Shown: piece after piece, positions 2,627 to 23,635 of the stretch
Position numbering within the stretch: position 1 is the stretch's first letter
Layout of the letters: each line of letters begins with the position of its first letter
Origin: an archaeon
GTDB taxonomy: Archaea > Nanobdellota > Nanobdellia > Woesearchaeales > UBA9642
NCBI GenBank assembly: GCA_043806035.1
Contig: JAZDHK010000034.1
Coordinates: 1 to 24,937, forward strand
Length of the DNA: 24,937 nt
Direction: 5' to 3'
The notes under the pieces: generated by a model
Told to the model about the DNA's origin: nothing
The model's input: the letters and a program-made list of their open reading frames with translations, nothing else
Databases searched by the model: none
Position numbers and translations under genes: made by a program

Positions 2627-3652
2627 CTATCGCCACGTCACGACAACGTCATCAGTCCTTTCGTACGGGTTAATGTCTGCTTTCTCTGCAGTAACGAAAA
2701 TTCCTGCCTTGAACATCACTAGCCCAGTCCAGGCAATCATGGCTGCGTTGTCGACAAGAAATTCATTGTCGGGAACATGACCTGTTGCATTCCTTGCCTC
2801 GCACATAAGCTTCGCCATTTCTTTCAGACGGGTATTGCACGCAACCCCTCCCCCCAATATTAATTCATTCTTTTGGCAGTGCGCCATTGCCCGCTCTGAC
2901 ACTTCGAGCAGCATAGCAAATGCAGTCTCTTGCGCGCTATAGCAGAGCTGCTCGGGCGTGTATGCCTTCTCTGCAATCTTTCTTTTGAGATTCGTGAACA
3001 TGCCGCCGAATGAGACATCCATGCCCTTGACGGAATAAGGAAGAGGAACGTACGGGAGTTTTTGCTCGACGGCTTTTTCTGCATACTGCTGTATGGTTGG
3101 CCCTGCAGGAAAGCCCATCCCTAAAAGTCTGCCGAAACTATCCAGGAAATTGCCTATTCCCATATCGAGCGTCTCTCCGAATATGCGATACTTGCCAGCG
3201 TCGTATGCTATTACTTGCGTGTTCGCACCCGACGCATACAGCAAGACAGGATCTTTTGCAGGCGTGACCAGTCTCGCTATTTCCAGATGGGCGATGCAGT
3301 GATTGACAGGAACAAGAGGCTTGTTGGTGATAACAGATAGGTATCGTGCGACAAACCCGCCTACACGCAACGCATTGCCTATGCCTGGGGCGTTGGAAAA
3401 TGCGATGCAATCAATATCATGAACGGTGAGATTTTTCTTCAGCACCTCACTTGCCACATCCAGTGCCTGCCGCAGTACTTTCTGGGAAACAGCGACGTGA
3501 TGGTCCGCAAGCTCTGAGGGGATCATGCCTCCTTGCTCCGTCTTGTACACGTCCTTGACATTGCAGAGAATCGCGTCCTTCCCTTGCCTAGTGCCATCTA
3601 CCAGGCTTATGCCGAACGTGTGCGCTGTCGTTTCGATGCCGAGGCAAAGCAT
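2627..3652 (-). CDS. kae1: tRNA N6-threonylcarbamoyladenosine (t6A) synthase Kae1, KEOPS complex, not fused to Bud32
   Basis: MLCLGIETTAHTFG start; HCIAHLEI metal-binding His pair; LYASGANTQ; GETLDMGIGNFLD; LPYSVKGMD; GGVACN; DNAAMIAW. TATA box upstream of 3652. Confidence 0.96.
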   Translation of the reverse strand: MLCLGIETTAHTFGISLVDGTRQGKDAILCNVKDVYKTEQGGMIPSELADHHVAVSQKVLRQALDVASEVLKKNLTVHDIDCIAFSNAPGIGNALRVGGFVARYLSVITNKPLVPVNHCIAHLEIARLVTPAKDPVLLYASGANTQVIAYDAGKYRIFGETLDMGIGNFLDSFGRLLGMGFPAGPTIQQYAEKAVEQKLPYVPLPYSVKGMDVSFGGMFTNLKRKIAEKAYTPEQLCYSAQETAFAMLLEVSERAMAHCQKNELILGGGVACNTRLKEMAKLMCEARNATGHVPDNEFLVDNAAMIAWTGLVMFKAGIFVTAEKADINPYERTDDVVVTWR

Positions 3653-3908
3653 GTCCTGGAGAGATTGTGCGTATTTATAAAATGTGTGCGCAGCATATCG
3701 TGGGCATGTTGTTGGCTTGTTTTTGGAAAGCATGTGTTTTGCTTATTTTGGATGGAATATTTTTTCTTAATCATTCGGTGATGAAAAGGAATATTTTTCT
3801 AGAACCACTATTGAATGGTTACAAAATAGATATGTTTTTAAATGCGGGTGCATTTCCCTCCTTACAACGATGCACGTATGTGCATTCATAGTGAAGGAGG
3901 AGTGAATC

Positions 3909-4133
3909 ATGACTACAAGAGCAAGTGGATTGGAAAAGACAGTGGGTGGCATGTACAATACATTGCCTAAGCCCCTGAAGCATGCAACGAATGCAGGACT
4001 CTATGGCGCTGCGGGTGCAGTGATATGTGGTCTTCTGCCCATTGTTACCGTGCCTATTGGCCTGATTGCTGGTGTTGGATTGTATGGTTACAAGACCTAT
4101 TCCAAATACAAGTCCAACAAGTCAAGGAAGTAA
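3909..4133 (+). CDS. Small two-TM membrane protein (paralog of 14279-14521)
   Basis: GGAGGAGTGA SD; hydrophobic Gly-rich helices with a basic tail; followed by a terminator. Confidence 0.8.
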   Translation: MTTRASGLEKTVGGMYNTLPKPLKHATNAGLYGAAGAVICGLLPIVTVPIGLIAGVGLYGYKTYSKYKSNKSRK

Positions 4134-4147
4134 GTTGCGCAAGATCT

Positions 4148-4202
4148 GCTGAGTAGTTGATGCTCAGTTATTTTTTTTTCTTTTCTTGTTCTGTTTTTTT
4201 TA
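4148..4202 (+). terminator. Hairpin plus poly-T terminator
   Basis: CTGAG..CTCAG stem (4149-4167) followed by long T-tracts. Confidence 0.65.
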
Positions 4203-4277
4203 TTGTTCTATCTGTGTGTTTGTCAAAGCGGACTGTTTCTGCAGTATGTTCTGGAATGATCCTTCCGTAGTATCTTG

Positions 4278-4293
4278 CCGAAACATTTAAATA
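4278..4293 (+). promoter_or_regulatory. Archaeal BRE/TATA promoter of the six-gene operon
   Basis: CCGAAACATTTAAATA; identical to 19145-19160. Confidence 0.65.
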
Positions 4294-4386
4294 TACTAGA
4301 TAATTCCTCTAAAGTAGTAACTTGATTATGTCATCATTATCGAGTTACAAATGTGGGTAATAGGATATTGTGAAGGAGGAAGGAAT

Positions 4387-5190
4387 ATGGCCTTATCGTT
4401 GAAAGATAAACTTACAGCAGGCAGAGCAGTCCTTAAGAAGAAAGTCACGGAAGCAAAAAGCAGTGCTGACAAGAGCATCACCGTCCAGACAGTCTTGGGT
4501 GCGGCTGACGGAGCATTCAGTGCATTGAAAAGAAAAGTAACTGATTATTCTGAACAAGCAACGGACTATCTCGAGACAAAAGCTGCAGAGGGCAGCGGTA
4601 TTGCACAGGCCGTCCTTGCAGGAAAGCAGCGAGTGGAAGCATTCACCACTGACATCAGGGAACGCTACCAAATCCTGCTCAATGAAACCAGTCCGTTGCG
4701 CATTCTCGTGCCAGGCTATGACGATATTGCAGCATTGCTCGATCAGGAACAGAAGACTGAGAGTGAGCAATCATACACGAAGAACCAGGACGGTCTCATC
4801 CTGCGCCTTGAAAAGACCATGAAGAAAGGAATGCTCGTGAACGGCGGCAGACTGCAGATTACTACAGAAAAGGAAACCGAAAACTTCGTAACGGCCTGTA
4901 ACGTAAGCATGAATTACTTGCCAAGACACGACAGGGACTATGTCTCGCTCTTTCACGCGCTTGCCAAGAATGCATTGACAGTCGTCCAGGATGAGTTCGG
5001 CATGGACGTCCAGCAAAAGACAACGACAGCGACATCCTATGCTGGACAGCGGTCAACGTTCATTCTCGTCGAGGACGTTCAATATCCGTACAAGCTCGAG
5101 ACGAATTTTGAGAACAGCGAATTCAAGATTGCCTACACGCCGAAAGGCGAAGGCATGACCTTTACAATAACAGGACAGGTGAAAGCATGA
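4387..5190 (+). CDS. Hypothetical protein with an amphipathic helical N-terminal half (operon gene 1)
   Basis: GGAGG SD before ATG 4387; ATGA overlap with the next gene. Confidence 0.8.
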   Translation: MALSLKDKLTAGRAVLKKKVTEAKSSADKSITVQTVLGAADGAFSALKRKVTDYSEQATDYLETKAAEGSGIAQAVLAGKQRVEAFTTDIRERYQILLNETSPLRILVPGYDDIAALLDQEQKTESEQSYTKNQDGLILRLEKTMKKGMLVNGGRLQITTEKETENFVTACNVSMNYLPRHDRDYVSLFHALAKNALTVVQDEFGMDVQQKTTTATSYAGQRSTFILVEDVQYPYKLETNFENSEFKIAYTPKGEGMTFTITGQVKA

Positions 5191-6437
5191 GCAAAGAAAA
5201 AGACGAGAAAACATTGGCAGTCTACACGCCTATAGGGTCGAAAACCACTCTCCAGCGTATGCAGAACTATGATCAAGTGAAAGAATCACAACATAACGTC
5301 GAGGAACGGATGGATCTCCTTCAGGAAGCACTCACCATCAGAGAACAAGAGGCAGTCCATGCAGCATACGGAAACATACCCCCACTCGTCACTTTTGGGA
5401 CAGGACTCGTTACGCTGAATAAGGACAAGATGCGCGTCGGATGGAAGCTTATGCGCGGCAAAGGCATAGCACTGAGTGACATCCTCCGCGACCAGTACAG
5501 AAACCTCGTCGAGAAGGCAGACAATCTTACTGATGAAGTGACAAAAAAAGACGAGCAGAAAAGAGAAATAAACGGCAAAATCAACACACTCTATACGGAC
5601 AGGGGGACGATATACAAAGGCATGGGTGCACTTAATGATGCGCTAGAAACGTGCCAACAGGAACTGGATACACTGCGTGCCCAGAAAGCTGAGGAAGACG
5701 CAAAAGAAGTCGCTGACTTTGGTGTCATCCACCAGTACGAAGAGGATATACGCAATAAAGAGCAAGAGTTCGTCCAACACCAGATTGAACGGGAAGTCAA
5801 GATTGCCGACGCCAACACCAAGGGAGAGACCATAGAGATCCTCACCGTGTTCGAAAAGCAGATTGATGCGCAACGACCTCTGCTCTACGGTCTGCAGAAA
5901 CGGGCGCAAGCAAGAGTGGAGCAAGCGGACACCATCATCGAGATTGAGGCAAGGAACCTCAACACGGCAGAGGCAGTCATTGCATTCACGACAGAATTCA
6001 GGCAGACGCGTGAAGTGCTCGGCTTCGCAGGAAAAGTGAACGCCTACTTCAACCAGAACCTGGACAGGGTACTTGACTACGTGAGCAATACGCCCATCGT
6101 TGATGAGAAGGATCTTGCCATCCGCGTGCAGAGCATAGGCACGATGCGAGAAGCAGCAAAGAATTACCTGACTGGCTGCAGTACGGAAGGGCAACTGCTC
6201 CTGCACGAATGCTACGAACGACTAGCCTTGCCGTTTGGCGCTTCAGAAGAGGAAATCGATGCGCGATGTGCCGTCATTGAACGGAACTCGAATGAAGAAA
6301 GGAAGATTGAAGCACGGCTTGCGGTAGGAACACTGCGTTCATTGAACAGTCTTGCAAAAGGCCAAGACGACCTCTTACGAACGGAATACAAGGCGTTGAC
6401 GGCAGGAAAACCAGCAGAAGAAGATGCAGCGGAGTGA
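5187..6437 (+). CDS. Long coiled-coil protein with a C-terminal degenerate J-domain-like segment (operon gene 2)
   Basis: E/K/Q-rich heptad pattern across the middle; CYERLALPFGASEEEI near the C-terminus with no HPD motif. Confidence 0.8.
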   Translation: MSKEKDEKTLAVYTPIGSKTTLQRMQNYDQVKESQHNVEERMDLLQEALTIREQEAVHAAYGNIPPLVTFGTGLVTLNKDKMRVGWKLMRGKGIALSDILRDQYRNLVEKADNLTDEVTKKDEQKREINGKINTLYTDRGTIYKGMGALNDALETCQQELDTLRAQKAEEDAKEVADFGVIHQYEEDIRNKEQEFVQHQIEREVKIADANTKGETIEILTVFEKQIDAQRPLLYGLQKRAQARVEQADTIIEIEARNLNTAEAVIAFTTEFRQTREVLGFAGKVNAYFNQNLDRVLDYVSNTPIVDEKDLAIRVQSIGTMREAAKNYLTGCSTEGQLLLHECYERLALPFGASEEEIDARCAVIERNSNEERKIEARLAVGTLRSLNSLAKGQDDLLRTEYKALTAGKPAEEDAAE

Positions 6438-7396
6438 CCATGTCCATCCTGAAGTTCTCTTCAGCAGAGAGGACGACATACCTCACTGCACTGCATAGCT
6501 GTCTCGTCCGTCTCGTACAAGTTATGAAGGAAGACAGCACCAGTCCTACGAGTACTGCATTTCACACGACATTTGCGGATCTCATCGGCCTGTACATGTC
6601 TGATACGACAGGAGTGCTTCCTGACTGTACGGTTAGTGCACGCTCAGGACTGCCCATGCTCTCGAAGCTTCTTTCCATAGCTCATGACCAGAGGAATCTG
6701 CTCCGTCAGATTACCTGGCGGGAAAAGAAAGACATTGCAGAAGATGTGCTTACGGCATTCTACCGACAGAGTAATGTGGACTTGTTCATGAACGAGTTCA
6801 GGAAGGCACACTATTATGAACGCTTGAAGGACATTAGCGAGTTCGACGAACAAGCGTTCTGCGAAGACATACAGGGCAATGCCATTATTGAAAAACAGGC
6901 AATCCAATACGCAGGATATCCCCTTGCGGAGATGAGCTGCATCAGCGTGCGTGCAGAATTTTATCGTGCCAAGACTATCCTGGAGCTTGCAGCGGCAAAG
7001 CCCCCTCTTGAGATGGTGCGCAGATATGCGGGCATGCCGGTGGAAGCGCTCTATCCTATGCTGGTCGACAAGCAATTCTTGTGCGGGCAGCTGGAAAAGA
7101 CAGAACTGATCTTCTATTTTGTGCAGAAAGAAGCCATCGTAGAAAACACGCCTGATGAGATACGCCATGTGCTCGCTGCGTATCCAGATGCGCACATCCT
7201 GCTCCAGAAGAGATCCATGCTGCAGAACCTCGATGTGCTCGTTGCAGAAAACCATCTGGAGCTGCACGATGCGCAAATCGAGAATCTCGAGCACGAAGTC
7301 ACGAATCTTTACTTTTGTATAGGCATCGATGATGCGAACTGGGAAGGAAATGAACTGCAACGGCGAGGAGAACTATGCAAAGTCTACAAGGCATGA
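6434..7396 (+). CDS. Hypothetical protein (operon gene 3)
   Basis: 320-aa ORF with a GTGA overlap upstream (alternative ATG at 6440) and an ATGA overlap downstream. Confidence 0.8.
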   Translation: MTMSILKFSSAERTTYLTALHSCLVRLVQVMKEDSTSPTSTAFHTTFADLIGLYMSDTTGVLPDCTVSARSGLPMLSKLLSIAHDQRNLLRQITWREKKDIAEDVLTAFYRQSNVDLFMNEFRKAHYYERLKDISEFDEQAFCEDIQGNAIIEKQAIQYAGYPLAEMSCISVRAEFYRAKTILELAAAKPPLEMVRRYAGMPVEALYPMLVDKQFLCGQLEKTELIFYFVQKEAIVENTPDEIRHVLAAYPDAHILLQKRSMLQNLDVLVAENHLELHDAQIENLEHEVTNLYFCIGIDDANWEGNELQRRGELCKVYKA

Positions 7397-8697
7397 CCTA
7401 TGCACATCCTGAAGAAAAGAAGGAATTGTACAGGCAGACACTTGCAGCGCTGCTCGATACGCAGCCGTTCGTCGCATCCTATCCGACATCGACGGACTGC
7501 CAACAGCACGATGTATTCGGCATGCCTCCCGACATGCACCCGCCATCACATGCACTGCTGGTATCGCGTAAACAACTACAGGATATCATCACGCGCAAGC
7601 CGAACACGGCAATCTCCTTTTTTGGAGAGATGCTTCACGAGCTTTGCGTGAAGAACCAACGGCTGCTCAATCTCGTGCTCGACACGGACATCGTTGTCGC
7701 CTCCTGCTCTGCATACGCAAAAAGCCAGAAAAATGACCCTTCTGCAATCGATGTGCTTGCTCTCATTGAAGGGCACTATCAGCCCTTGGCTCAGACACCA
7801 GTAACGAAGGACGTGGACTGGGAACTGTCCTGTGCGCTCTCCAGCCCGACGCTGGACACGATGCGGCTCGTGCTTGCAGGCGAGGAAAAAATCAGGGCAG
7901 AGCCAGATGCGCTTCTCAGAAACCTCGTGGGTGAATTGCAGGCAAGCTATGCCCCGCTCTTTGCACGATTTGGTGACATCAGGGCATATGAGCCTTTGCT
8001 TGAACTGAACAATACAACTCCAGAACCATTCACCTACGCGCTTCCTGGACAAACCTACGTGGTTGTGCCCCATGAAGGATTCTTTGTTGTAACGCTCATA
8101 GAAACTGAACAAGAGCTGTCATATCCATTCCTCTCAACAAAAGAGGGAAAAACCATCGTGGATAGAATGTTCGATGCAGGCTATTTGCGCGTCAACATAC
8201 CTTTTTGCGAAAAGAACATCCATGCGGTTGAGAAACGGGAAATCATGCACTTTTCCTCAACACGTGAAAAAGAAATCCTGCCCGAGGACAAGGAATACAT
8301 TGCACGGCTGAAACAGAAGCAGCCCACCAGCACGTTCGAGCATATACGATTCATACGAAAATACCTCCAAAAATCGCTTGCCGACAATAAGGACTGGACT
8401 GAACTCAGGGATGTCATGTACGATGGAAAGAAGGTCCGTTACTTCCCCCTTTCCTTAGAACTACTATTCGTGGAAAGCATAGGACATCCTGCAGTGAACG
8501 CAATAGTGGAAAGCCTGCACGCGTACGATCCGTTCCTGCACCAACAGAACGATCCTGAAGGGTTCATAGAAGCGTACAAGGACAGCAATTGGACGGAGAG
8601 AAGCAACAGGGCATTCTATCTGAGAACGATGATGCGGGCGGGCAAGCACCTCGCGCCTGAAGTCCATGGCTTCCTCAAGAAGGAGGGACGACTATGA
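7393..8697 (+). CDS. Hypothetical protein, possibly a distant DUF6638-like protein (operon gene 4)
   Basis: ATGA overlaps at both ends. The family resemblance is from memory only and unverified. Confidence 0.75.
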   Translation: MTYAHPEEKKELYRQTLAALLDTQPFVASYPTSTDCQQHDVFGMPPDMHPPSHALLVSRKQLQDIITRKPNTAISFFGEMLHELCVKNQRLLNLVLDTDIVVASCSAYAKSQKNDPSAIDVLALIEGHYQPLAQTPVTKDVDWELSCALSSPTLDTMRLVLAGEEKIRAEPDALLRNLVGELQASYAPLFARFGDIRAYEPLLELNNTTPEPFTYALPGQTYVVVPHEGFFVVTLIETEQELSYPFLSTKEGKTIVDRMFDAGYLRVNIPFCEKNIHAVEKREIMHFSSTREKEILPEDKEYIARLKQKQPTSTFEHIRFIRKYLQKSLADNKDWTELRDVMYDGKKVRYFPLSLELLFVESIGHPAVNAIVESLHAYDPFLHQQNDPEGFIEAYKDSNWTERSNRAFYLRTMMRAGKHLAPEVHGFLKKEGRL

Positions 8698-11072
8698 ACG
8701 ACATCAGCAAACTCCTTCTCGAATACGCACACACCCATCTTGACACGGTCTCGGAGCAAGAATGGGATGTGCGGGCTGAACTTCTTGATGATAAGCAACT
8801 CAAGAAAGTCGTGCTTGATAAGGTTGTCAGCAAGTATGATTCTCCGGCAAAACCCATTTCGCAATTGCAGGGTGTTGTCAAACGCCTTAATCCTCACGAG
8901 TATGATGACTTGAGGGAAGCGCTGGACGATATCGTCATGAGCATTAATGACTATTATGGCTATACGCAGGCATCAGGGAAAAAACCGCCGATGACCGTGG
9001 CACCAGTCATGACGATTGAGGAACGGCAACAAAAGGCGCTCGATGAGATGGAAAGCAGACGCATACGGAAAGTGATTGCGGCATTGGAACAGATGAAAGG
9101 CCAGTTTGATAATTCAGAGATGTACATTCGTGAACTCATCCAGAACGCCGTCGATGCGGGCAGCACGCGCATTGACGTACGCATGCGGTATGATGATGCT
9201 AAGAAGAAGGCCATCGTCAGCGTCAATGACAACGGCTGTGGCATGAACCTTGACAAGATCAGGGGCAAGCTGCTGACCTTGTTCGAGTCAGACAAGGAAG
9301 GAGATATAACAAAAATTGGCAGGTTTGGCATTGGCTTTGTCTCCGTCTTCGCCCAGAAAGGGCTAGAGCAGGTAGTAGTGCACACTTCTGATGGAACTGC
9401 AGAACACGTAGTGAAATTGCTCCCTCCTGCGCTCGGCTGGAAGGGTGAAATTTACGAATCAGGAAAGACGCGGGAGAAAGGGACGGAAGTCATCATCGAG
9501 GCATGCATCGGCAAGGAACACTACCTGGACCTCAGGAAAGGGCTGGTCAACGAGATCGGCAATTCGAGCGCATACATCACCACACCCTTGTACGTGAACA
9601 ACCACAAGATGAACAGAGAATTCAGAATTCCTCATGCAAAAGTGCAGTTTCACTTCGGCGGTGGCTCCGACCTTGAAGGCATACTTGCCATCACGCCACC
9701 AGAGATAAAAAACGGGAACACCATAGACAAAACATTCTATGCCATCTTTAATAGGAGGCTGTGCATCGCCAGGGAGAACAGGCCTTTGTTCGATGATGAA
9801 CCTGACCTCTCTATCATGTTGAGCTCATCGCATATTGACTACACCATCTCTAGAGATGCAATCATTGAGAACACGCGCTATAAGCAGATCCTGCGCCTGC
9901 TCAAGGAGAAGAAAGACCAATTGCATCACATCATCGCAAAATCGATAGCGACAGAAGAACAATTCAAGGTGGGTATTCCTCCCAAGGATGGAAAGGCGAG
10001 GTTCTGGTCATCCTCACCATCCGGCGAGTATGGTGCAGTTCCCGCGTATGCAGATGAACACAGAAAACAGCCCGTGTTTTTCAATGACAGTGAACGATTG
10101 CATTTCTGCGGTGACGAAGCATTATTTGACAAGTTGACCGAGTACATCAAGAAGAAGATAGCCCAGAAGAGGGAGCCCCTCTTGCGACGCATGAAGCATT
10201 TCTTTATGCGGAAGAATGGGACTGCCAGAATTCTCGAGCGGTTGCCTCGTGAGCTTCGGCATGAGAAGATACTCACGGGTATAGTCTATTTACCACAAGA
10301 GGATCGTGTTGGGTTTAAGCGGTATTCCCTCGCAGAGGTACTGGATCAGGCGGAGAAGGAGCATTGCGTGCTTTACACGTATGTCAGTCATCAACGCTAT
10401 ATTGAGTCTGTGGCTAAAGCCCTGCTCGATCGGGGAAAGATTCTGCTTGTCAACTTTGAGAAACATGATCCCCAGAAACGGCTGCTTGAGCTTTTCAGCA
10501 CGTATCAGGAAGTTCGCAGCAAGTATTCGTTGCCGAACTATGAGGATGTAGAGAAGCTGTCGCCCGCTGAGCGGACATTCATCACCGAACTGGATAGTAT
10601 CATCCAGAAGAGTCCGCTGAAAAAACACGTTGCGTACACGGTGATGGGCACGAAGCAGGATGTCCATAAGCAGAATGATGTGCCGTTGTACTTCTCCTCG
10701 AATGTTCTTGAAAAGGGATGGGGCAAGCGCCTGTTTGGCGTCAAGAGAACGTTCTATGAGCGGACAAAAGATGTGCTCATGGGGAAGGAGAAAGTCGTGC
10801 TGACGAGAAATCATGAGTTTGTCGAACGATGCGTCGCCCTCTCTCAGGACAGCATGTGGTCGTTCCTGCCGTATGTTGCGGTCATGACCGGCATCGCCTA
10901 TAAGCTGGCACACATGCACAGCGCTCTGCCCAAGGATATGCTGCAGTTCATCATGCAGGAGTATGGTGAGCAGCTCAAAGGCAAAGAAGTGGACATGGAG
11001 GCATTCATGTCGCAGTACAAGCGAGATGAGGCCTTTACCAGAACAACCGAGGTGCTGGTCGATGAACGATGA
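8694..11072 (+). CDS. GHKL (Hsp90/MutL/MORC-like) ATPase (operon gene 5)
   Basis: N box YIRELIQNAVDA, G1 DNGCGM, G2 KIGRFGIGFVSVF, G3 GTEV, followed by a transducer-like region (TISRDAII). Confidence 0.9.
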   Translation: MNDISKLLLEYAHTHLDTVSEQEWDVRAELLDDKQLKKVVLDKVVSKYDSPAKPISQLQGVVKRLNPHEYDDLREALDDIVMSINDYYGYTQASGKKPPMTVAPVMTIEERQQKALDEMESRRIRKVIAALEQMKGQFDNSEMYIRELIQNAVDAGSTRIDVRMRYDDAKKKAIVSVNDNGCGMNLDKIRGKLLTLFESDKEGDITKIGRFGIGFVSVFAQKGLEQVVVHTSDGTAEHVVKLLPPALGWKGEIYESGKTREKGTEVIIEACIGKEHYLDLRKGLVNEIGNSSAYITTPLYVNNHKMNREFRIPHAKVQFHFGGGSDLEGILAITPPEIKNGNTIDKTFYAIFNRRLCIARENRPLFDDEPDLSIMLSSSHIDYTISRDAIIENTRYKQILRLLKEKKDQLHHIIAKSIATEEQFKVGIPPKDGKARFWSSSPSGEYGAVPAYADEHRKQPVFFNDSERLHFCGDEALFDKLTEYIKKKIAQKREPLLRRMKHFFMRKNGTARILERLPRELRHEKILTGIVYLPQEDRVGFKRYSLAEVLDQAEKEHCVLYTYVSHQRYIESVAKALLDRGKILLVNFEKHDPQKRLLELFSTYQEVRSKYSLPNYEDVEKLSPAERTFITELDSIIQKSPLKKHVAYTVMGTKQDVHKQNDVPLYFSSNVLEKGWGKRLFGVKRTFYERTKDVLMGKEKVVLTRNHEFVERCVALSQDSMWSFLPYVAVMTGIAYKLAHMHSALPKDMLQFIMQEYGEQLKGKEVDMEAFMSQYKRDEAFTRTTEVLVDER

Positions 11073-14000
11073 GCAGTTGCGCCAAGTGACGGATGGCACG
11101 GAATTCATATGGGACATGAATCAGGAGAAGATGCAGCTCAAGACAACCACGAGCCTCCTCTCCGACCCTGTTGACTACGTCCTAGAATTCTTCTCACTCC
11201 TCCATAATTCGAATCCATCTGCCATACGTATCAAGACACACGCGTCTTCATTGGAAATGCTGGCTGATGGGGAAGGCTTGGACATGCAGGACATTACCGA
11301 GCTCTCCTCAACATTCTTCGTTTCTGAACAAGACAGTTCGCTCATGAAGAAATATGGTGGAATGACGCGGGCTGTGTATTCTGCCATGCATCTCAACACG
11401 GAAAAAGTCGTCATCGAGAGCAGAAAGCACAATGTTCCGCTTAAGTATACCTTCTCAAAGCTCTCGCCCAAAAAAATGTCCAAGGAAGAGCGTTTGAAAT
11501 CTGTCAGGTTCGGTGAGCATAATGTGAATTTCAAGCACGAGCAGCAGTCGAATGTCAAAGGAGGCATAAGGATAACTGTAGCAAAACAAGGCAAGGGTTT
11601 CTTCAGCAGGCTTAGCAGGGATAAGACTCCAGAGTATAGAAAGCTCATGGAGCGCTGCAGGAATTCAACCATTCCCGTCTATATCAATGGCAGGAAGATA
11701 AACATCGAACAGGAGGACTATGTCAAGAGGTCACTGTTCCACGGGGCATTGTTCAGGGAAACGAACGATCTGCCCTATCAGCACACGATAACGGATGATG
11801 GCCTGTCTGCGAAGATCTGGCTAGAGAGCAGGATTCCGAAAGGATTCATCAACCTGCTGAAGTCAGGCGTGTACTATCCTCAGGAAGAATTACTTCCCTC
11901 GGTTCCCTATCTTTGCGTGAACCTTGACTCGTTGGAATTCGTTGTCAGCCTGGGCAAGAAGAAGACAATCGCGAATTATGAAGGTGTTGTGCGAGAAGTT
12001 GGGAGAAACCTTCGCCCGCTCTTCGAACAAGTGCTGAATGGATATACGGAGAAGCTGCAACGGGAGTTTTACACCAGTAGCGCAGTCTCGCATCGGGAAG
12101 TCATAGCTAGGATGCTGCTCGACTTGAGCGAAAGTGACATTGCATCACTCTCTTCGGGCGATGCAACGCCGTATGTGAAAAAGTTGGTTTCAGCGAAAGT
12201 TTTCAGCATGAGCGAATACAACAAATCCGCATCGTTGGAGGATCTCCTTCACGAACCAGTTGTCGTTACAGTGCAGAACCGTCTTTTTTCACAGCATGAC
12301 TTTAACGTGTATGTTGCCGATGAATCGTTGGTTGCCGTGCTGCATAAATTCGGCCTGCGTACGAAGGATCTTTCGGCAATTCAGAAGGAGGAAATCCAGC
12401 GTACTCGTGAAGAATTAAATAGGATAAAAGAGGAGGAACGTCTCGCTAGCATGTCTGTCCATCAGCAACAGAACGCTATTGTTGGCGGCTACTTGGCAAA
12501 GCTCTTCGGGAAAAAGAATGCCATAACCCTTGATGAAGTGGTGCGCGTGGGCACATCCTCTTTGCGAGGGGCGTCATTGGTTGCGAGCGCAGTCATTGCT
12601 TCGCCGCTCCTCCTTGGTGGGGCGGCAGCCTATCATACAGTGAGATATGCTGGAAAAGCAGCTTTGCTTGCGCTGGTGACGGGTGTTGCTCTGGTAGGAG
12701 GAGCGGCAAAAATTAGCTATAAGGGAGTGGAGTGGACGGTGAAGAAGCCGCTGCGTGCCACCTGCAATGGTGTGGGGACGGGCATCGGTGCGGTGTATCA
12801 TGGAGTCCAGCGTTTCTATCATAATCATTTGTACAAGCCATTGCGTGCGACAGGTCGCGGCATAGCTGTGGGCGTTGGCACTGTCGCTACGGGTATAGGT
12901 GTCGGTGTTGGTGCTTTCTTCACTGGTATAGGTTATGTGCTCTATCACGCAGGCAAAGGCACGTGGGTGGCAACGAAGTATACGGCAGAACATACGGGTC
13001 GTGCTGCAGGCGCGACGAGGAGCGGCATTGCGCGGCTCGCGGGAAACATTTCTGATTACGTGAGTTCTACCTATCAGACGTGGAAATTGCAACGTGAGAC
13101 AAAACGTCACGCGCCCGAGGCAGTTCTCAAGAGGGATCAGCGTGATGAGCTGCGGAAGGCACAATATGCATTGAAGCAGAAAGCAAGAGATCAACGGAAA
13201 GCAGCACGTGAGCAAAAAGAGGAAGACAGAAAACAAAGCAAGGAAGAAAAGAAAAAGAGAAAGTATGAGGCGCATCAGGAAGAATACAGGCAAGATGTCG
13301 AAAACACCTTACGTGCAAGTCAGAAGATGGCGCACGCCATCCACTATCTCGCAGGTCACACCGATTTGTTCCAGTATCTCATCAATCACTCCTTGAATGA
13401 CACTTCACTTTTGGAATTCAAAATCCTCTGCCCGCGGGATTATCTCAGCGAATACAGCACGAAACTGGACAGTCTCGTTCTGCGACATCTGACAAAAAGG
13501 AAAGGCATTTTCTTCAACGTGCCGAAGTTCGACAGGAATCATCTTGGCATTGTTCACCAGTACGTGCACAAGTCAGTGAAGCCGTACGAGGCTCCGCTCA
13601 TTCCCTTTATTGATAAACGGCACTCAAACGATGAGAAGCGAACGCTCTCGCCCATGTTGACGATTGATGGACGTATTGACAAGCAGAACACGCTTGCGGA
13701 TGCACTCGGGTACGTTCCCGGACTGTATGCGCTTGCTCCGTACGTGTTTGCCTTTGCCGAAATGCCAGATGGCGTGTGGATTTCTGATGTGCAGCCGACA
13801 ACAACGTCATATTGGGATGAGCACAGGAATCTGATGGCGAGGACAGCCATCAAGTTTCTCAATCCGAACAAGCCCTACACGTCAGATGTGATTTCATTCT
13901 ATGATGCCATGTTCAAACGCATCCTCGAGGCAAAAGTCATTGATACGGTCGAGGCATACCAGCACGGCGATGAGAAACGCTTCAAGGAACTCTTCCCGCT

Positions 14001-14130
14001 CCTGGACAAGAAAGAAGTGCGAGATGTCGTGACACGACTATTGCAGGAACAGAAGCATTATCCTGCCCTTGACGATTATGTCGAGACGGCACAACCGCAG
14101 TTGGTGAATGAGCTCGGCAGGACGACATAG
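11062..14130 (+). CDS. Degenerate GHKL paralog with a central Gly-rich hydrophobic region and charged coiled coil (operon gene 6)
   Basis: GAGGTG SD before ATG 11062. DYVLEFFSLLHNS / ADGEGL / KKYGGM / GIRITV / IPVYINGRKIN are colinear with the gene 5 motifs. Confidence 0.8.
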   Translation: MNDEQLRQVTDGTEFIWDMNQEKMQLKTTTSLLSDPVDYVLEFFSLLHNSNPSAIRIKTHASSLEMLADGEGLDMQDITELSSTFFVSEQDSSLMKKYGGMTRAVYSAMHLNTEKVVIESRKHNVPLKYTFSKLSPKKMSKEERLKSVRFGEHNVNFKHEQQSNVKGGIRITVAKQGKGFFSRLSRDKTPEYRKLMERCRNSTIPVYINGRKINIEQEDYVKRSLFHGALFRETNDLPYQHTITDDGLSAKIWLESRIPKGFINLLKSGVYYPQEELLPSVPYLCVNLDSLEFVVSLGKKKTIANYEGVVREVGRNLRPLFEQVLNGYTEKLQREFYTSSAVSHREVIARMLLDLSESDIASLSSGDATPYVKKLVSAKVFSMSEYNKSASLEDLLHEPVVVTVQNRLFSQHDFNVYVADESLVAVLHKFGLRTKDLSAIQKEEIQRTREELNRIKEEERLASMSVHQQQNAIVGGYLAKLFGKKNAITLDEVVRVGTSSLRGASLVASAVIASPLLLGGAAAYHTVRYAGKAALLALVTGVALVGGAAKISYKGVEWTVKKPLRATCNGVGTGIGAVYHGVQRFYHNHLYKPLRATGRGIAVGVGTVATGIGVGVGAFFTGIGYVLYHAGKGTWVATKYTAEHTGRAAGATRSGIARLAGNISDYVSSTYQTWKLQRETKRHAPEAVLKRDQRDELRKAQYALKQKARDQRKAAREQKEEDRKQSKEEKKKRKYEAHQEEYRQDVENTLRASQKMAHAIHYLAGHTDLFQYLINHSLNDTSLLEFKILCPRDYLSEYSTKLDSLVLRHLTKRKGIFFNVPKFDRNHLGIVHQYVHKSVKPYEAPLIPFIDKRHSNDEKRTLSPMLTIDGRIDKQNTLADALGYVPGLYALAPYVFAFAEMPDGVWISDVQPTTTSYWDEHRNLMARTAIKFLNPNKPYTSDVISFYDAMFKRILEAKVIDTVEAYQHGDEKRFKELFPLLDKKEVRDVVTRLLQEQKHYPALDDYVETAQPQLVNELGRTT

Positions 14131-14278: not shown

Positions 14279-14521
14279 ATGGATCTAGAAACGAAGGCAA
14301 ACGAATGGTATACCAATGTCCTGACATCAAAAGTGGCAAAGAATGCACTTCTGTATGCGGGTGTCGGCGGGGTCGGCAGCTTCTTTTTTGACAGCGTCGG
14401 CTTCCTCGGAGGAGCACTCCTCGGATCAGGCATCTACGTTGTTGGCAAGTGCATCAAGGAATACCGTGCGCACAACAGGACTACTGACAACCAGGTCAAT
14501 GACACGACACACACGGGCTAG
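14279..14521 (+). CDS. Small two-TM membrane protein (paralog of 3909-4133)
   Basis: GGGGAGG SD before ATG 14279; TTTAAA box at about 14216; Gly-rich hydrophobic helices. Confidence 0.75.
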   Translation: MDLETKANEWYTNVLTSKVAKNALLYAGVGGVGSFFFDSVGFLGGALLGSGIYVVGKCIKEYRAHNRTTDNQVNDTTHTG

Positions 14522-16845
14522 AACAGCTTGAAGAAGCTCAGCTGTTGGATAATGTCAGCGCCGCTGCCATGCGTCAGCATTATGCTGGGAAACGCATCGA
14601 AGAGGTTGTTGATATAGCCGAACTTGAACAGGGCAATGCACCAGATGATGATGAGTGCGGCAATGCCATAGGCGAACGTGAACAGCAATTGTTTTCTTAT
14701 CTTTTCTTCAAGCAAGCCGTACGTCTTGAACAGGAACAGCAAGGAGAGGCAGAACAGTACGTAGAGGGAGAGAGCAAAAAACATGCTCAGATAATTTTGC
14801 TTGAACACGATGTCGTGCAGCATAAACCATAGCCTGTCGGGTATGAGTTTGAAGACGAACACGTTCAAGAACAGGACGAAGAACGTGATGAACAGCATGA
14901 TGAGATGGGTGAAGAGCTTGCTCTTCTGCCTAAAGAATACCAGCCGCACGAGGACAAGCCATATGAGGAAGATGACCACGAGCAGGCAGCCGATGATGAC
15001 ATCATTCCTGGACATGAATGCCAACGGGCTTGATAGTGTTGCACCGATGAACACGGCGATGATTGCCCGATCTGTAACGGGATAGAGGGAAAGGATGCGC
15101 AGCAGGATAAGCACGGCAACGAGGGCAAATGCCAGCGTCGAAGTGATGAGCAGGAGCTGCCGTTGCTTATACCTCTCGACGCGCTCGATGAACTGGTATG
15201 CATCACTGAAGTCCATGCTCGGCAATGCCTCGTCCTTGCCATATTCGTGCTCGAGCTGCATGGCGAGGCTTTTTGCTTCTGCAGCGGTGGCCTGAGCGGC
15301 GAGTAAGTAGTTCTCGTCCTTTTTCTTGATGAACTCGTAGTAGGAGAGGAAGGCCAGCTTATACTTTGCAAGGAAGGAAAGCGTTTTTTCCTGATAGTCG
15401 AGGCTTTGCCGGATGAATGGTGTTGATGTGCCGTTCAGGATGGCTTGTTTGTGCATCATGAATCTGTCCAACGCAGCGTTCGTCCGTGAGGCTTCTTCGC
15501 TGACATTTTTTACTTGCAGATAAACGTGCACGAGTGCAAAGTGCGCATCCATCGGCCTGTCCCACCAGAGCCATAATAGTGTGGGGAGGGGAACGTTTCT
15601 CACGCGTGACGGTCGTTCCGCATACGCCTTGACGTACAGGATGTCCTGAATAATGGTATGACTGTCCTTGACGAATGCAAAGAGCGCGTCTGCTGCGCCT
15701 GTCGATTGCAAATTTTCTTGCAGTGCACGGTCCGTGTCATACGCTGGATTGTGCACGATTAGGGGAAATACAGCACTGTTCAGTTCTGTCCAGAAACCTG
15801 CAGGGGTGTCTGGTTGGTTGTTTGCCCTGTCCCATCCGCCGAAGTGCGTCCACACGTACACGCCAGCAAAATTCTTCCTCGTTGTGTAGTCTGCAAGGAG
15901 GTCCTTGTTGCTGTCCACGAGATAGTTCGTCAAGGAGCCATAGCCTTCGTATTCTCGCCTGAGTTGGAATTCTACGAGTTGCTGCACGGATCCTCTGCCG
16001 AGCAGCCGTTCTTTTGGGAGGAAGCTGAAGAAGTCGCCTTCACCGTTTTTTATGGACGTGATGAGATGGCTCGTGTTGTACGTTCTGAATATGTTGTCGT
16101 ACTTGTCGGGATTGTACATGAGATCCCCTATTTTTCCTATGCCCACTGTCCAGGTTCTGAAGATGAGCGTCTTGTTGTGCTTTTTTGCGAGGGGCAGGAG
16201 GGTGTCGATGAGCCTGCTGATGTCCTGCTCCGTTGTGTAGCTCAGCACGGACGTGTACTCTGCCGATGAGGTGTAGAATTGCCCTCCTTCTCCTATCCTG
16301 ATGATGATGCCAGACAGGCGCGGCATGCTCGTGCATACTTCTTCGAGTGCTGCCTTGTTCAGCTGCATGAGCCGTTCGTTCTCTGCGGAGAAATCATGTC
16401 TGACAAATGCACTGATGAATGAATCCGTGAATTGGTAGTCTGACGTGAGGTAGAAGCTGGCATTTTCCAGCTCTGGCGTTCGCATGATGTCGTTGAAGAA
16501 TGTCTTGTATGCCTCTGCCCTGATGACATAGCTGCTGTTTACGGGATAGACGTCGATGCTTGGCAGGGAGATGACCCGTTGCATGTCTCCAATGACGAAT
16601 GCATTGTATCCTTCTGCAAGCCGGTGCTTTGCGTATGCAATGAACCGTTCTTTGGCCACTGCTAATTTTGCTGTATCAACGTATGGTTGGCTAGTGGTGT
16701 CGTACTGGTGGTAGGGAAAGATGTTCCACGAATCTTTTTCTTTCGCATCAAGGTAGAATGTCCCGCCGGGATCCGTCATGATGAGTTGCGCTTGTGCTGC
16801 ACTCAAGATGACAAGCAGGGTGAGAAGGAGCAGCCAGGCCTTCAT
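14518..16845 (-). CDS. Secreted glycoside-hydrolase-like catalytic domain (GH67-like barrel?) with a C-terminal multi-pass membrane anchor
   Basis: Signal peptide MKAWLLLLTLLVILSAAQA; GIIIRIGEGG, LIFRTW and VEFQLRREYEGYG motifs; about 6 TM helices in the last 210 aa. Confidence 0.6.
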   Translation of the reverse strand: MKAWLLLLTLLVILSAAQAQLIMTDPGGTFYLDAKEKDSWNIFPYHQYDTTSQPYVDTAKLAVAKERFIAYAKHRLAEGYNAFVIGDMQRVISLPSIDVYPVNSSYVIRAEAYKTFFNDIMRTPELENASFYLTSDYQFTDSFISAFVRHDFSAENERLMQLNKAALEEVCTSMPRLSGIIIRIGEGGQFYTSSAEYTSVLSYTTEQDISRLIDTLLPLAKKHNKTLIFRTWTVGIGKIGDLMYNPDKYDNIFRTYNTSHLITSIKNGEGDFFSFLPKERLLGRGSVQQLVEFQLRREYEGYGSLTNYLVDSNKDLLADYTTRKNFAGVYVWTHFGGWDRANNQPDTPAGFWTELNSAVFPLIVHNPAYDTDRALQENLQSTGAADALFAFVKDSHTIIQDILYVKAYAERPSRVRNVPLPTLLWLWWDRPMDAHFALVHVYLQVKNVSEEASRTNAALDRFMMHKQAILNGTSTPFIRQSLDYQEKTLSFLAKYKLAFLSYYEFIKKKDENYLLAAQATAAEAKSLAMQLEHEYGKDEALPSMDFSDAYQFIERVERYKQRQLLLITSTLAFALVAVLILLRILSLYPVTDRAIIAVFIGATLSSPLAFMSRNDVIIGCLLVVIFLIWLVLVRLVFFRQKSKLFTHLIMLFITFFVLFLNVFVFKLIPDRLWFMLHDIVFKQNYLSMFFALSLYVLFCLSLLFLFKTYGLLEEKIRKQLLFTFAYGIAALIIIWCIALFKFGYINNLFDAFPSIMLTHGSGADIIQQLSFFKLF

Positions 16846-17590: not shown

Positions 17591-18418
17591 CTAGACTTGA
17601 CCGGTCATTAGATTTATTATTCGCGGTGTTGCGTATGTTTCTTTGATGGTGTGTCTCATTCTGCGCAGAGTGAGTAGTGGGCAATAATCCCTCGTTACGT
17701 CAACAGACTTATTCATGATTGTATATGGCAATAATGAATGTCCTGCACCAAGACAATGATTTAATTCGTGTTTGAACACATTTTTGAATCTTTTCTCTTT
17801 TGTCGAGACTATCATCAAAGGATATCCTATATGTTGTACTGATCCTTTAATTGTGGATGTTGGATAAATGGTTATTTGCCGAAGGGAATTTAATAGTGTC
17901 TGAATGATGCGAGGAACATCCTCGATATTACCCTGTATCTCGATATTATCAACTATTGGTCTATTAATATCTTCAAAAAGTGCACAGTAGATGGCAGGTC
18001 TCGTGAGAGAGGCACATTCTTTTTCATAAACTGCTACCAGATCCAGGCCCCTTCTCTTATGAGGTTCACGCATTTCGTATTCCCTTATTAATTCTCGCAT
18101 TGCTTTCTGATCATGTTCTGTTTTTGCTATTTCATCTTGCAGTGTGCTGAGTGCTTTCTTGAACTGATGGTCATATTCCCAGACGCGGAATGTTGGCTCG
18201 AGTGCGAGATTAAGTTTTCGTGCGTACCAGTCAAATATGGTGTGAAAGGTCTTTTCTGTATCGCTGATACCTTCAGCATATTCTTCTTGTGTCAGATTTT
18301 GAGGAAAGACGCTTTTGTCGAAAAAAATGTGCAGGTCTATCGTGTGTGCGTCTCGTCTTTGAGGAGGATTCTTCCAGACACGATTCATGTCAGCAATGAA
18401 TTGTTCTGTTAGGTCCAT
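17591..18418 (-). CDS. Metzincin-type (matrixin-like) zinc metalloprotease
   Basis: HELNHCLGAGH (HExxHxxGxxH) followed by a Met-turn TIM; AAGGAG SD. Confidence 0.75.
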   Translation of the reverse strand: MDLTEQFIADMNRVWKNPPQRRDAHTIDLHIFFDKSVFPQNLTQEEYAEGISDTEKTFHTIFDWYARKLNLALEPTFRVWEYDHQFKKALSTLQDEIAKTEHDQKAMRELIREYEMREPHKRRGLDLVAVYEKECASLTRPAIYCALFEDINRPIVDNIEIQGNIEDVPRIIQTLLNSLRQITIYPTSTIKGSVQHIGYPLMIVSTKEKRFKNVFKHELNHCLGAGHSLLPYTIMNKSVDVTRDYCPLLTLRRMRHTIKETYATPRIINLMTGQV

Positions 18419-20099: not shown

Positions 20100-20282
20100 C
20101 CCAGCTACAGCATCTAAACGGGTGCTGAGAGAGTAGCTTGGAACTACACGCTCGTTCACTACGGCAAAACTCTCATTTTGCCATAAAATACAGCCTCAAC
20201 AGCGATGAAGGGGCAGTGAACGCCGAGAATTAACGTTCTCGACCCTGAACAGTGATTCAGGAAAGTGAACGCGCTACTGTGC
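20100..20282 (+). ncRNA. Putative structured 5' leader of the DGR template RNA
   Basis: At least five stems plus a long-range 8-bp pairing in about 180 nt with no credible ORF. Confidence 0.55.
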
Positions 20283-20371
20283 GGGGCTTGTGCCTGTCCT
20301 TGGCAACAACGACAACAACGGCTTCAATGGCAACAACAACCTCAACAACAACGCGCGGTTTGGTGGAATAG
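20283..20371 (+). repeat. DGR template region (TR)
   Basis: 89 nt with 11 AAC/AAT codons in the VR frame and 26 adenines; ends 40 nt upstream of the RT start. Confidence 0.95.
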
Positions 20372-20411
20372 TCAGGCTATTAAACGCTGGGACACTTTTC
20401 TTTTCTCGAAC

Positions 20412-23045: not shown

Positions 23046-23080
23046 AATCATGGAAGCTAAAAGGGTATGAGGTGAAAAAC

Positions 23081-23635
23081 ATGGTATGGACTTACAAACG
23101 TGAACCCTTAGAAGATAACGAAGCCGACTTGCTCAGAAGAAACTGCAAAAGCTTTGAGGAAGAGCTTGTGATTAACGTGCTCCTTGATACGGGCATGAGA
23201 GTGAGCGAGCTTGCCCACCTCGAAGAGCAGAACGTGGCCTGGCAACGCAGTTGCATCAACCTTACAGGCAAAGGCGGTAGACGACGCGTCATTCCCATGA
23301 GCAATCTGGTGGGCTTCTATCTGACGCACACGTTTAGCAAGCAATCGAGGGTGCCGTTAGCTATTCGTACTATTGAGAAGTACGTCAAGGTTGTGGCAGA
23401 GCGCGCGCGGCTCAAGAAGAAGGTTAGCCCGCACATCTTACGACACACCTTCGCCGTCATGTACCTGCACCGTGGCGGCAATCTTCGAGCGTTGCAATCA
23501 ATTCTGGGGCACAGCAGCATAACCACAACAGACATTTACTTGAACTATTCTGGCAAACGGGTGATTGAGGATTTTCAGAAAGTGTGGCAGCAAAAGGAGG
23601 TCGGCAACGCGAGCTTGAAGCAGTTTTTCCCATGA
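23081..23635 (+). CDS. Tyrosine recombinase (Xer/integrase family), catalytic domain only
   Basis: TGMRVSEL, GKGG, HILRHTFA, LGHSS and TTDIY give an intact R-K-H-R-H-Y set; a GAGGTGA SD favours ATG 23081 (alternative GTG 23072). Confidence 0.92.
   Translation: MVWTYKREPLEDNEADLLRRNCKSFEEELVINVLLDTGMRVSELAHLEEQNVAWQRSCINLTGKGGRRRVIPMSNLVGFYLTHTFSKQSRVPLAIRTIEKYVKVVAERARLKKKVSPHILRHTFAVMYLHRGGNLRALQSILGHSSITTTDIYLNYSGKRVIEDFQKVWQQKEVGNASLKQFFP

Follow-up and report, generated by a model that had tools for sequence, protein, structure and literature searches.

A six-gene archaeal operon predicted to pair a divergent Hsp90-family ATPase with a degenerate paralog, and its link to AAA–DUF6638 gene sets

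Results

Organization of the operon

We analyzed a 24,937-nucleotide (nt) stretch of DNA from a DPANN archaeon (the window) that carries an operon of six genes, w1 to w6, predicted to encode a divergent Hsp90-family ATPase (gene 5), a degenerate paralog of that ATPase (gene 6), and four proteins (genes 1 to 4) that matched no family in Pfam, NCBIfam, or PADLOC. As contig C34, the window belongs to G000, a 1.5-Mb genome in 42 contigs, and the sequencing runs listed as containing its DNA come from a single study of a biofilm metagenome. The six open reading frames (ORFs) are co-directional on the plus strand and occupy positions 4387–14130 (Table 1). The w1/w2 junction is an ATGA overlap, and the w2/w3 junction is a GTGA overlap that becomes a 2-nt gap if w3 starts at the alternative ATG at 6440, where its Atlas record begins. 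Gene 4 starts either within an ATGA at the w3/w4 junction or 18 nt earlier, at the start given in Table 1; the earlier start has GAGGAG upstream, is shared with the database protein, and produces a 22-nt overlap. The w4/w5 junction is an ATGA preceded by AGGAGG, and w5 and w6 overlap by 11 nt. The five junctions are overlapping or nearly so, with alternative starts at two of them, and the ORFs and junction sequences agree with the first-pass annotation of this DNA, which had described six coupled genes. The TATA-box-like sequence TTTAAATA is a candidate archaeal promoter, and a single promoter for w1 to w6 is plausible.

Table 1. Operon genes, their sequence features, and neighboring ORFs in the window
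Feature	Position	Strand	Length or residues (amino acids)	Description
Gene 1 (w1)	4387–5190	+	267	N-terminal half helical, C-terminal half beta-rich
Gene 2 (w2)	5187–6437	+	416	Long coiled coil; Pfam matches weak and of coiled-coil type
C-terminus of w2	6198–6311	+	~338–375	Degenerate, J-domain-like; aligns with G198 and G015 J domains
Gene 3 (w3)	6434–7396	+	320	SGxP protein: S71-G72-L73-P74 and YYERL
Gene 4 (w4)	7375–8697	+	440	Distant DUF6638 superfamily member; alternative start 7393
Gene 5 (w5)	8694–11072	+	792	Predicted divergent full-length Hsp90-family ATPase; 135-residue N-terminal extension
ATP-binding domain of w5	9105–9593	+	~138–300	Bergerat fold; ExxxNxxD, DxGxG, GxxGxG, and GT intact
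T-I-S-R-D loop of w5	9843–9857	+	384–388	R387, counterpart of the Hsp90 middle-domain Arg
Gene 6 (w6)	11062–14130	+	1022	Predicted pseudo-Hsp90 paralog, from ATG 11062; frame opens at 10963
N-terminal and middle region of w6	11158–12288	+	33–409	Degenerate, Hsp90-like; from hhalign against the gene 5 family
First hydrophobic stretch of w6	12559–12720	+	500–553	Gly/Ala-rich; Kyte-Doolittle windows up to 1.96
Second hydrophobic stretch of w6	12859–12942	+	600–627	Glycine-zipper-like; Kyte-Doolittle 1.81
C-terminal domain of w6	13774–14127	+	~905–1022	Helical; conserved alignment columns
TATA-box-like TTTAAATA	4286–4293	+		Within the 253-nt AT-rich spacer 5′ of gene 1; read from the sequence
GGAGG	4375–4379			Ahead of w1
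Neighboring ORF	3909–4133	+	74	Small Gly/Ala-rich membrane protein after GGAGG, just 5′ of the operon spacer
Neighboring ORF	14518–16845	−	775	Next long gene downstream, convergent; signal-like N-terminus, large soluble part, C-terminal block of many hydrophobic helices
Neighboring ORF	17591–18418	−	275	HELNHCLGAGH, metzincin-like HExxHxxGxxH
Neighboring ORF	20265–22082	+		Stand-alone reverse transcriptase, RVT_1 and HTH_40
Neighboring ORF	23072–23635	+	187	Phage-integrase-family fragment, 3′ of the reverse transcriptase

Gene 5 is predicted to be a distant Hsp90 family member

Pfam detects HATPase_c_3 in w5 (E 1.2e-11), and the NCBIfam model of the sacsin ATP-binding domain scores 50.7 bits against a cut-off of 50. 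The protein conserves E147, N151, D154, D179, G181, G183, G209, G212, G214, G263, T264, and R387. The Bergerat motif residues are invariant or nearly so in the alignments and are all kept in six archaeal relatives, and R387 is invariant across 50 sequences. The arginine in the middle-domain loop of Hsp90 is catalytic. A 50-sequence gene 5 profile aligned with Escherichia coli HtpG (2iop_A) with an E of 4e-22, profile columns 10–515 falling on HtpG residues 13–608, and the alignment puts the R387 loop on LPLNVSRE of HtpG and the ATP-site motifs on HtpG's own. An AlphaFold2 (AF2) model of w5 has a mean predicted local distance difference test score (pLDDT) of 78.2 and a predicted template modeling score (pTM) of 0.69. 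Its top Foldseek matches in the PDB are only GRP94, TRAP1, Hsp90-beta, Hsc82, and a DnaK-HtpG model, all with E of ~1e-21. These alignments run for ~700–750 columns on full-length Hsp90s at ~14% identity. A three-domain architecture with a C-terminal dimerization domain would fit the span of the HtpG and Foldseek alignments, but the profile draws mostly on shorter bacterial relatives and the template modeling scores (TM-scores) are only 0.33–0.44. We place gene 5 in the Hsp90 family rather than with the MutL, MORC, or topoisomerase types because the profile matches HtpG over its whole length, including the Arg loop, and because the best Foldseek matches are full-length Hsp90s. The scores of w5 lie far below the curated cut-offs of NF003555 (HtpG; 33.3 versus 371 bits) and NF010683 (PRK14083, HSP90 family protein; 46.3 versus 455 bits), and gene 5 is a distant family member and not an HtpG ortholog. 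HtpG is reported missing from archaea, or from most archaea, in two papers (PMC1525184; PMC12874294).

Gene 6 is a paralog of gene 5 with a degenerate ATP site

The gene 6 family aligned with the gene 5 family by hhalign (99.4%, E 9.3e-22, 368 columns), and w6 residues 33–409 fall on w5 residues 138–587. All eight gene 6 relatives compared have E42 and D69-G70-x-G72, which in w6 are the only ATP-site motifs left. The position of the Mg-binding Asn is occupied by Leu, Phe, Ala, or another residue, GxxGxG is gone, and the Arg loop of w6 reads VSLGK, so the catalytic Arg is gone as well. These alignments identify gene 6 as a paralog of gene 5 with a degenerate site. The first-pass annotation had called the two an active/inactive GHKL pair; the motif states confirm the pair, but its gene 5 belongs with Hsp90 rather than with GHKL proteins in general.

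After its pseudo-Hsp90 part, gene 6 encodes a predicted membrane segment, a linker of charged residues, and a C-terminal domain that is conserved. A hydrophobic stretch occurs at the equivalent position in all seven archaeal gene 6 relatives tested, and hydropathy finds no comparable stretch in w1 to w5. Residues 500–553 of w6 likely form a membrane hairpin. Matches of the gene 6 profile extend to the C-terminal parts of four proteins (311, 428, 413, and 417 amino acids; E 2e-6 to 6e-4) in another archaeal gene module, G277:C72, described below. A complex prediction for w5 110–600 with w6 1–430 gave a score of 0.47, compared to 0.00 for the best of three controls; contacts agree between runs to 56% or more, and the pLDDT of the partner is 70 or higher. 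Among solved complexes, 58 of 80 pass the mark that this score passes; among mismatched pairs, 2 of 110 do. Passes at 0.60 or below comprise 7 of the 80 solved complexes and both passing mismatches. The w5/w6 pass may reflect likeness to solved Hsp90 dimers.

These features bear on the idea that the operon encodes a DNA-acting GHKL machine of the MORC, MutL, or topoisomerase VI-like type that works with a coiled-coil partner in restriction, repair, or segregation. GHKL ATPases are frequent in restriction-type operons, and the ATP-binding domain has weak NCBIfam matches to MutL, Topo VI B, and a GHKL restriction enzyme. However, the full-length profile and fold matches, including the Hsp90-type Arg loop, are to Hsp90 proteins, Pfam and NCBIfam find no nuclease, helicase, methylase, or DNA-binding domain in the operon, and the partner encoded by gene 6 is membrane-anchored according to hydropathy. 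We regard a DNA-acting machine as scarcely credible.

Genes 3 and 4 are related to proteins of AAA–DUF6638 operons

A paralogous module lies elsewhere in the window genome (G000:C6:45–5743, locus L178, minus strand). It encodes, in order, a coiled coil (387 amino acids), an SGxP protein (374 amino acids), a classical AAA ATPase (660 amino acids; PF00004, E 8.6e-16), and a bona fide DUF6638 protein (466 amino acids; PF20343, E 8.6e-27). The same set is present on pSymB of Sinorhizobium meliloti and on a megaplasmid of Vibrio parahaemolyticus, and in S. meliloti the AAA version is followed by membrane proteins (DUF2333). The coiled coil of the C6 module has a borderline EAD9 match, 26.1 bits against a cut-off of 25. 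Gene 3 aligned with the second gene of these AAA–DUF6638 operons (hhalign 93.9%, E 1.5e-7, 192 columns), and the two share the SGxP and YYERL/LYLERL motifs. Ten gene 3 family sequences all have G72 and P74. Modeled by AF2 (pLDDT 71.3, pTM 0.71), w3 has a bundle of helices and, after it, a beta sheet with long strands; among the 284 PDB matches listed by Foldseek, none had E ≤ 0.001. Atlas features had suggested a carnitine acyltransferase for w3 (0.92, 178 shared), an assignment that neither Pfam nor Foldseek on the AF2 model supported. The Atlas models of w3 and w4 have pLDDT values of only 0.35 and 0.39, and their structure matches are uninformative.

Gene 4 is a distant member of the DUF6638 superfamily. 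A word-based homolog search with w4 returned only w4 itself, and Pfam gave no match at E ≤ 1, so the protein falls below the PF20343 gathering score of 27 bits; its G198 ortholog reaches 17.3 bits. A profile built from three gene 4 orthologs was searched against 1.84 billion representatives and found 39 proteins at E ≤ 0.001. PF20343 (DUF6638) is carried by 11 of the 38 that were scanned (best E 1e-30). Aligned by hhalign with a 10-sequence DUF6638 alignment, the gene 4 profile matched from end to end at 99.8% (E 1.7e-29, 367 columns), compared to only 54% with the single C6 DUF6638 protein, and the 10-sequence alignment was decisive. No paper mentioning the name DUF6638 was found.

Pfam finds no AAA domain in any of the six window proteins. 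The first-pass annotation had likened genes 2 to 4 to an uncharacterized bacterial cluster, and the homology holds for genes 3 and 4; gene 2 agrees only in its position and its coiled coil, and the profiles differ. A third variant of the module is G277:C72 (L179:3660–12639, minus strand), which encodes two coiled coils, an SGxP-like protein, a short DUF6638 protein (PF20343, E 2.8e-7), and four paralogs of 311–428 amino acids; an ATPase was not detected in it.

Genes 1 and 2 and the J domain

Gene 1 has two weak paralog-like genes in G198. Gene 2 carries a J domain in two of its three orthologs, a feature that the first-pass annotation did not note. The G198 ortholog matches Pfam DnaJ (E 1.1e-10, 41.8 bits versus a cut-off of 27.8), and the G015 ortholog gives a sub-threshold DnaJ match (E 0.018, 15.6 bits); HPD is present in both. 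DnaK and DnaJ are found in all five carrier genomes. G198 also has an ORF of 428–430 amino acids with Hsp70 (PF00012) similarity over the nucleotide-binding part (G198:C7:97523–98698; L013:11506–12792), which lies ~6 kilobases (kb) 3′ of the third Hsp90-like pair of that genome.

A long coiled coil in first place in the shared core recalls membrane-remodeling or repair machines of the PspA/Vipp1 or ESCRT-III plus Vps4 type, in which the coiled coil would be the polymer. A protein-remodeling ATPase is always present, gene 6 has membrane-type hydrophobic stretches, and DUF2333 membrane proteins follow the AAA version in S. meliloti. Against this, PspA_IM30, Snf7, and TelA are not among the Pfam matches at E ≤ 1 for w1, w2, or their G015 orthologs, a comparison made at the level of sequence. 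We take the families concerned to be PF04012 for PspA/Vipp1, PF03357 for ESCRT-III (Snf7), and PF05816 for TelA. The PspA/ESCRT-III-like kinship proposed in the first-pass annotation, which also named TelA as a family to test, was not borne out in sequence, and a machine of this type is quite improbable.

Recurrence of the operon in archaea

The six genes recur in G015, a genome of the same family and another genus, with similar sizes and in identical order. Each G015 gene is the best match of its window counterpart; the identities are 27% for genes 1, 2, and 3 (E 6e-23, 8e-37, and 3e-33, respectively), 22% for gene 4 (E 4e-19), 34% for gene 5 (E 4e-126), and 26% for gene 6 (E 1e-77). The six genes form a cassette with unshared flanks because tblastx of the window against the G015 locus finds nothing substantial beyond 4402–14121. 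This six-gene synteny between differing flanks indicates that the operon is more than a chance arrangement. Genes 3 to 6 are found again in a third genome, G198.

The cassette is sporadic. Matches to w4 were found in 2 of 41 related genomes and matches to w6 in 5 of 401 genomes of the phylum; orthologs of w6 occur in G015, G054, G198, and G277. In G198, genes like 3, 4, 5, and 6 are followed by two further 5/6 pairs, giving three tandem pairs in total, and a coiled coil with a J domain accompanies genes 3–6. A shorter form, in G277 and a metagenome-assembled genome (MAG) of a nanoarchaeote (L054), has a coiled coil, then genes like 3 and 5, and then either one or two genes like 6. A metagenome scan with generic GHKL motif patterns recovered genes 1–4 in 0 of 80 loci and the pair only in L102.

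Bacterial pairs and hybrid operons

A scan of species genomes with gene 5 found 439 relatives in 600 candidate stretches. We kept 79 loci, 77 of which have bacterial record titles, mostly from Myxococcota with some from Elusimicrobia, Vulcanimicrobiota, Burkholderiales, and Nitrospirales. Fifty of 78 bacterial Hsp90-like genes examined are followed by a same-strand ORF that matches the N-terminal profile of gene 6, and several of the remaining 28 sit at the end of a contig. ORF calls in these GC-rich loci are crude, and starts and lengths are approximate.

The SGxP profile matches ORFs directly 5′ of Hsp90-like genes in L084, L089, and L064. The L064 locus (3543–9059, a Myxococcales MAG) has the Hsp90-like protein and its large partner as one 1838-residue ORF directly behind SGxP, which may be a fusion or an ORF-calling artifact. 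The order in L089 is coiled-coil-like, SGxP, AAA, Hsp90-like, and pseudo-Hsp90, and its AAA protein (PF00004, E 9.6e-6) is, within a small set, nearest to the AAA proteins of DUF6638 operons. AAA and Hsp90-like genes share one operon in three bacterial loci (L089, L258, and L262). The first-pass annotation had proposed that a GHKL pair fills the AAA role; the window operon indeed lacks an AAA gene, but the three shared operons make that view too simple.

An SGxP gene was present in 31 of 301 sampled genomes of the phylum of L089, and 20 SGxP loci were taken for neighborhood sorting. Seven have SGxP followed by an Hsp90-like gene and its pseudo-Hsp90 partner, two have SGxP, AAA, and Hsp90-like genes, two have the Hsp90-like pair near SGxP in a different order, six have neither ATPase, and three are interrupted by a contig end. 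A conserved ~345-residue protein is encoded 5′ of SGxP in four of the six loci that have no ATPase. In L263 and L266 (G523:C5 and G533:C13), SGxP is followed by conserved proteins of ~580 and ~570 residues that match no ATPase profile used and that may be a further partner type. The gene 3 and gene 4 homologies and the hybrid operons together link the Hsp90-like pair to the AAA–DUF6638 operon.

The bacterial carriers also inform the idea that the cassette is a private Hsp90 system, a folding, assembly, or export helper for particular DPANN clients such as giant surface proteins. An Hsp90-family fold, a J-domain partner, and a membrane anchor read from hydropathy would all suit such a helper. 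Yet the pair is also carried by large, free-living Myxococcota, most relatives with this life style lack the cassette (36 of 41 and 396 of 401 genomes with the queries used), and no client gene is linked to it. These data make a private client helper very unlikely.

Genomic surroundings and defense-related features

The convergent 775-residue protein downstream of the operon has no Pfam family. The 74-residue ORF upstream was excluded as an operon member; G015 has no counterpart upstream of gene 1. A 112-residue protein in the G198 cassette (L012:6411–6749) resembles it in character. The 275-residue metzincin-like protein has no Pfam or PADLOC family. The reverse transcriptase matches the PADLOC models RT (2.7e-49) and UG17 (2.2e-34), and together with the integrase fragment, 6–9 kb downstream of the operon, it possibly marks a mobile or defense islet.

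The six proteins were compared with PADLOC-DB 2.0. There were no matches for w1 and w6, w2 to w4 gave matches at chance level (E 0.004–0.25), and w5 matched through its ATP-binding domain only. The TmtA models of the Tiamat system match w5 at residues 135–221 only, with a best E of 3.4e-13. TmtA is described as a GHL ATPase fused to a NOV_C or PD-(D/E)xK nuclease in a preprint, which also places Tiamat, sacsin, and Hsp90 in neighboring GHL clades and mentions putative antiphage Hsp90-like proteins of other architectures (10.64898/2026.09.30.754977). Identification of gene 5 as TmtA was rejected; the match is restricted to the ATP-binding domain, and Pfam finds no HEPN, NOV_C, or PD-(D/E)xK nuclease domain in the operon. 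PADLOC thus assigns the operon to no defense system and does not support the defense machine that the first-pass annotation had named among its options.

An antivirus or conflict function is nevertheless a possibility to be weighed, and we consider it doubtful but not negligible. The operon would then be a sensor-switch related to Tiamat and sacsin, in which the coiled-coil, SGxP, and DUF6638-like proteins sense an invader and the gene 6 hairpins enter the membrane to cause abortive infection. The patchy presence in 5 of 401 genomes, the self-contained cassette with its unshared flanks, the 21–34% identity between genera within one family, the three tandem pairs in G198, and partners that are swappable, as in the G277:C72 variant, all agree with a conflict system. 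So do the TmtA and sacsin matches of the w5 ATP-binding domain, the adjacency of the GHL clades, the putative antiphage Hsp90-like proteins of the preprint, the borderline EAD9 match of the C6-module coiled coil, the downstream reverse transcriptase and integrase fragment, and the predominance of Myxococcota among the bacterial carriers. On the other hand, none of the six proteins has an effector domain, such as a nuclease, protease, or NADase, that Pfam, PADLOC, or NCBIfam recognizes, and the PADLOC matches are confined to a generic ATP-binding domain. Members of the pair or core are also absent from the 37 loci found on viral contigs, which all hold generic GHKL domains and have no match to the gene 3, 4, or 6 profiles.

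Discussion

We propose, with a probability of about one half, that the operon codes for an asymmetric, membrane-tethered ATPase of the Hsp90 type and for the scaffold on which that ATPase works, and acts as a protein-remodeling machine; this proposal does not divide a role in stress from one in defense. Gene 5 would be the catalytic Hsp90-like subunit. The dead paralog encoded by gene 6 probably pairs with it and would anchor the pair through its hydrophobic hairpins, and the C-terminal domain of gene 6 would serve for docking. The products of genes 2, 3, and 4 (the long coiled coil, the SGxP protein, and the DUF6638-like protein) would form the scaffold, and the J domain on the coiled coils of the sister operons would recruit DnaK. 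At the membrane, the ATPase would assemble, take apart, or unfold the coiled-coil/SGxP/DUF6638 complex or the clients that it holds. A protein target is far likelier than DNA because the motors that travel with SGxP (AAA, Hsp90-like, or both) remodel proteins and because the J domain points to Hsp70. The arrangement also hints at the identity of the substrate, either the coiled-coil/SGxP/DUF6638 assembly or something that it holds. The homologies, motif states, gene order, and recurrence described above are the foundation of this proposal; formation of the heterodimer, insertion into the membrane, action on the scaffold, and the trigger (stress, damage, or an invader) would be its further components.

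Several results count against a remodeling machine of this design. The prediction of a w5/w6 heterodimer is a weak pass, and membrane anchoring by gene 6 is a prediction from hydropathy. The alignment of w2 with its orthologs shows the HPD loop deleted, and Pfam finds no DnaJ (PF00226) match in w2; because w2 has lost HPD, recruitment of Hsp70 cannot be general. The coiled coils of the two module types showed no homology when compared (hhalign 4%). The AAA module lacks a counterpart of gene 1, whose comparison with the 255-residue gene upstream of the C6 module gave 0.1%. The coiled-coil/SGxP/DUF6638 triad is not constant, since a DUF6638 match is found in 0 of 20 bacterial SGxP loci. AAA and the Hsp90-like pair co-occur and may have different jobs. 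No RNA sequencing runs among those listed carry the operon. Finally, the sporadic spread, fast divergence, and tandem duplication fit a conflict system as well as they fit a chaperone.

A broader model can be built on the protein-remodeling proposal, and we consider it unlikely. The coiled-coil/SGxP/DUF6638 set would serve bacteria and archaea alike as a scaffold or sensor to which different protein-remodeling motors attach: an AAA unfoldase, the Hsp90-like pair with a J domain, or both. The Hsp90 motor would convert the scaffold signal into membrane insertion of the hairpins of the dead subunit. Such a system would be a new class of stress or anti-invader switch and a free-standing prokaryotic counterpart of the sacsin design.

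The general view is that archaea have no Hsp90 and that bacteria have no dedicated partners for theirs. The operon pairs a predicted Hsp90-type ATPase with a dead paralog and a J-domain-type coiled coil, and co-encodes it with two protein families that have no assigned fold or function. It also allows two undescribed gene sets to be joined, the Hsp90-like pair of DPANN and Myxococcota and the widespread coiled-coil/SGxP/AAA/DUF6638 operon of Proteobacteria. Because both motors work on proteins, the mechanism of the AAA version limits that of the Hsp90 version and vice versa, and S. meliloti, Vibrio, and myxobacteria offer tractable carriers. Should the dead subunit be a regulated membrane effector, it would represent a new type of switch. 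In the literature searched, no description of the Hsp90-like pair or of the operon was found, in line with the first-pass annotation, which knew of none.

Comparison with known systems

Gene 5 resembles the Hsp90 family (HtpG, TRAP1, GRP94, and cytosolic Hsp90) in its Bergerat site and middle-domain Arg loop and may share the C-terminal part. It differs in its N-terminal extension of 135 residues and its ~14% identity in structural alignments, in being co-encoded with a dead paralog that has a membrane segment and with SGxP, DUF6638-like, and coiled-coil genes, and in its archaeal host. The likeness to the coiled coil/SGxP/AAA/DUF6638 operon lies in genes 3 and 4, which are homologs of its genes 2 and 4, and in the order of coiled coil followed by SGxP. 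The window operon, in contrast, has no AAA gene, has an additional gene 1, and places the Hsp90-like pair after the DUF6638-like gene; a J domain on the coiled coil is seen in sisters of the window operon. With Vps4/ESCRT-III and PspA/Vipp1 the operon shares only the logic of a helical protein and a remodeling ATPase near a membrane. Vps4 is an AAA ATPase, whereas the window ATPase is not, and w1 and w2 have no sequence match to Snf7, PspA, or TelA. The sacsin/Tiamat clade is connected to the operon through the w5 ATP-binding domain, which reaches both the sacsin-domain model and the PADLOC TmtA models. Sacsin, whose architecture is given in the preprint (10.64898/2026.09.30.754977), likewise combines multiple Hsp90-like modules, some of them degenerate, with a J domain. 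The corresponding modules of the window are separate polypeptides and, compared over their whole length, are closer to Hsp90 proper.

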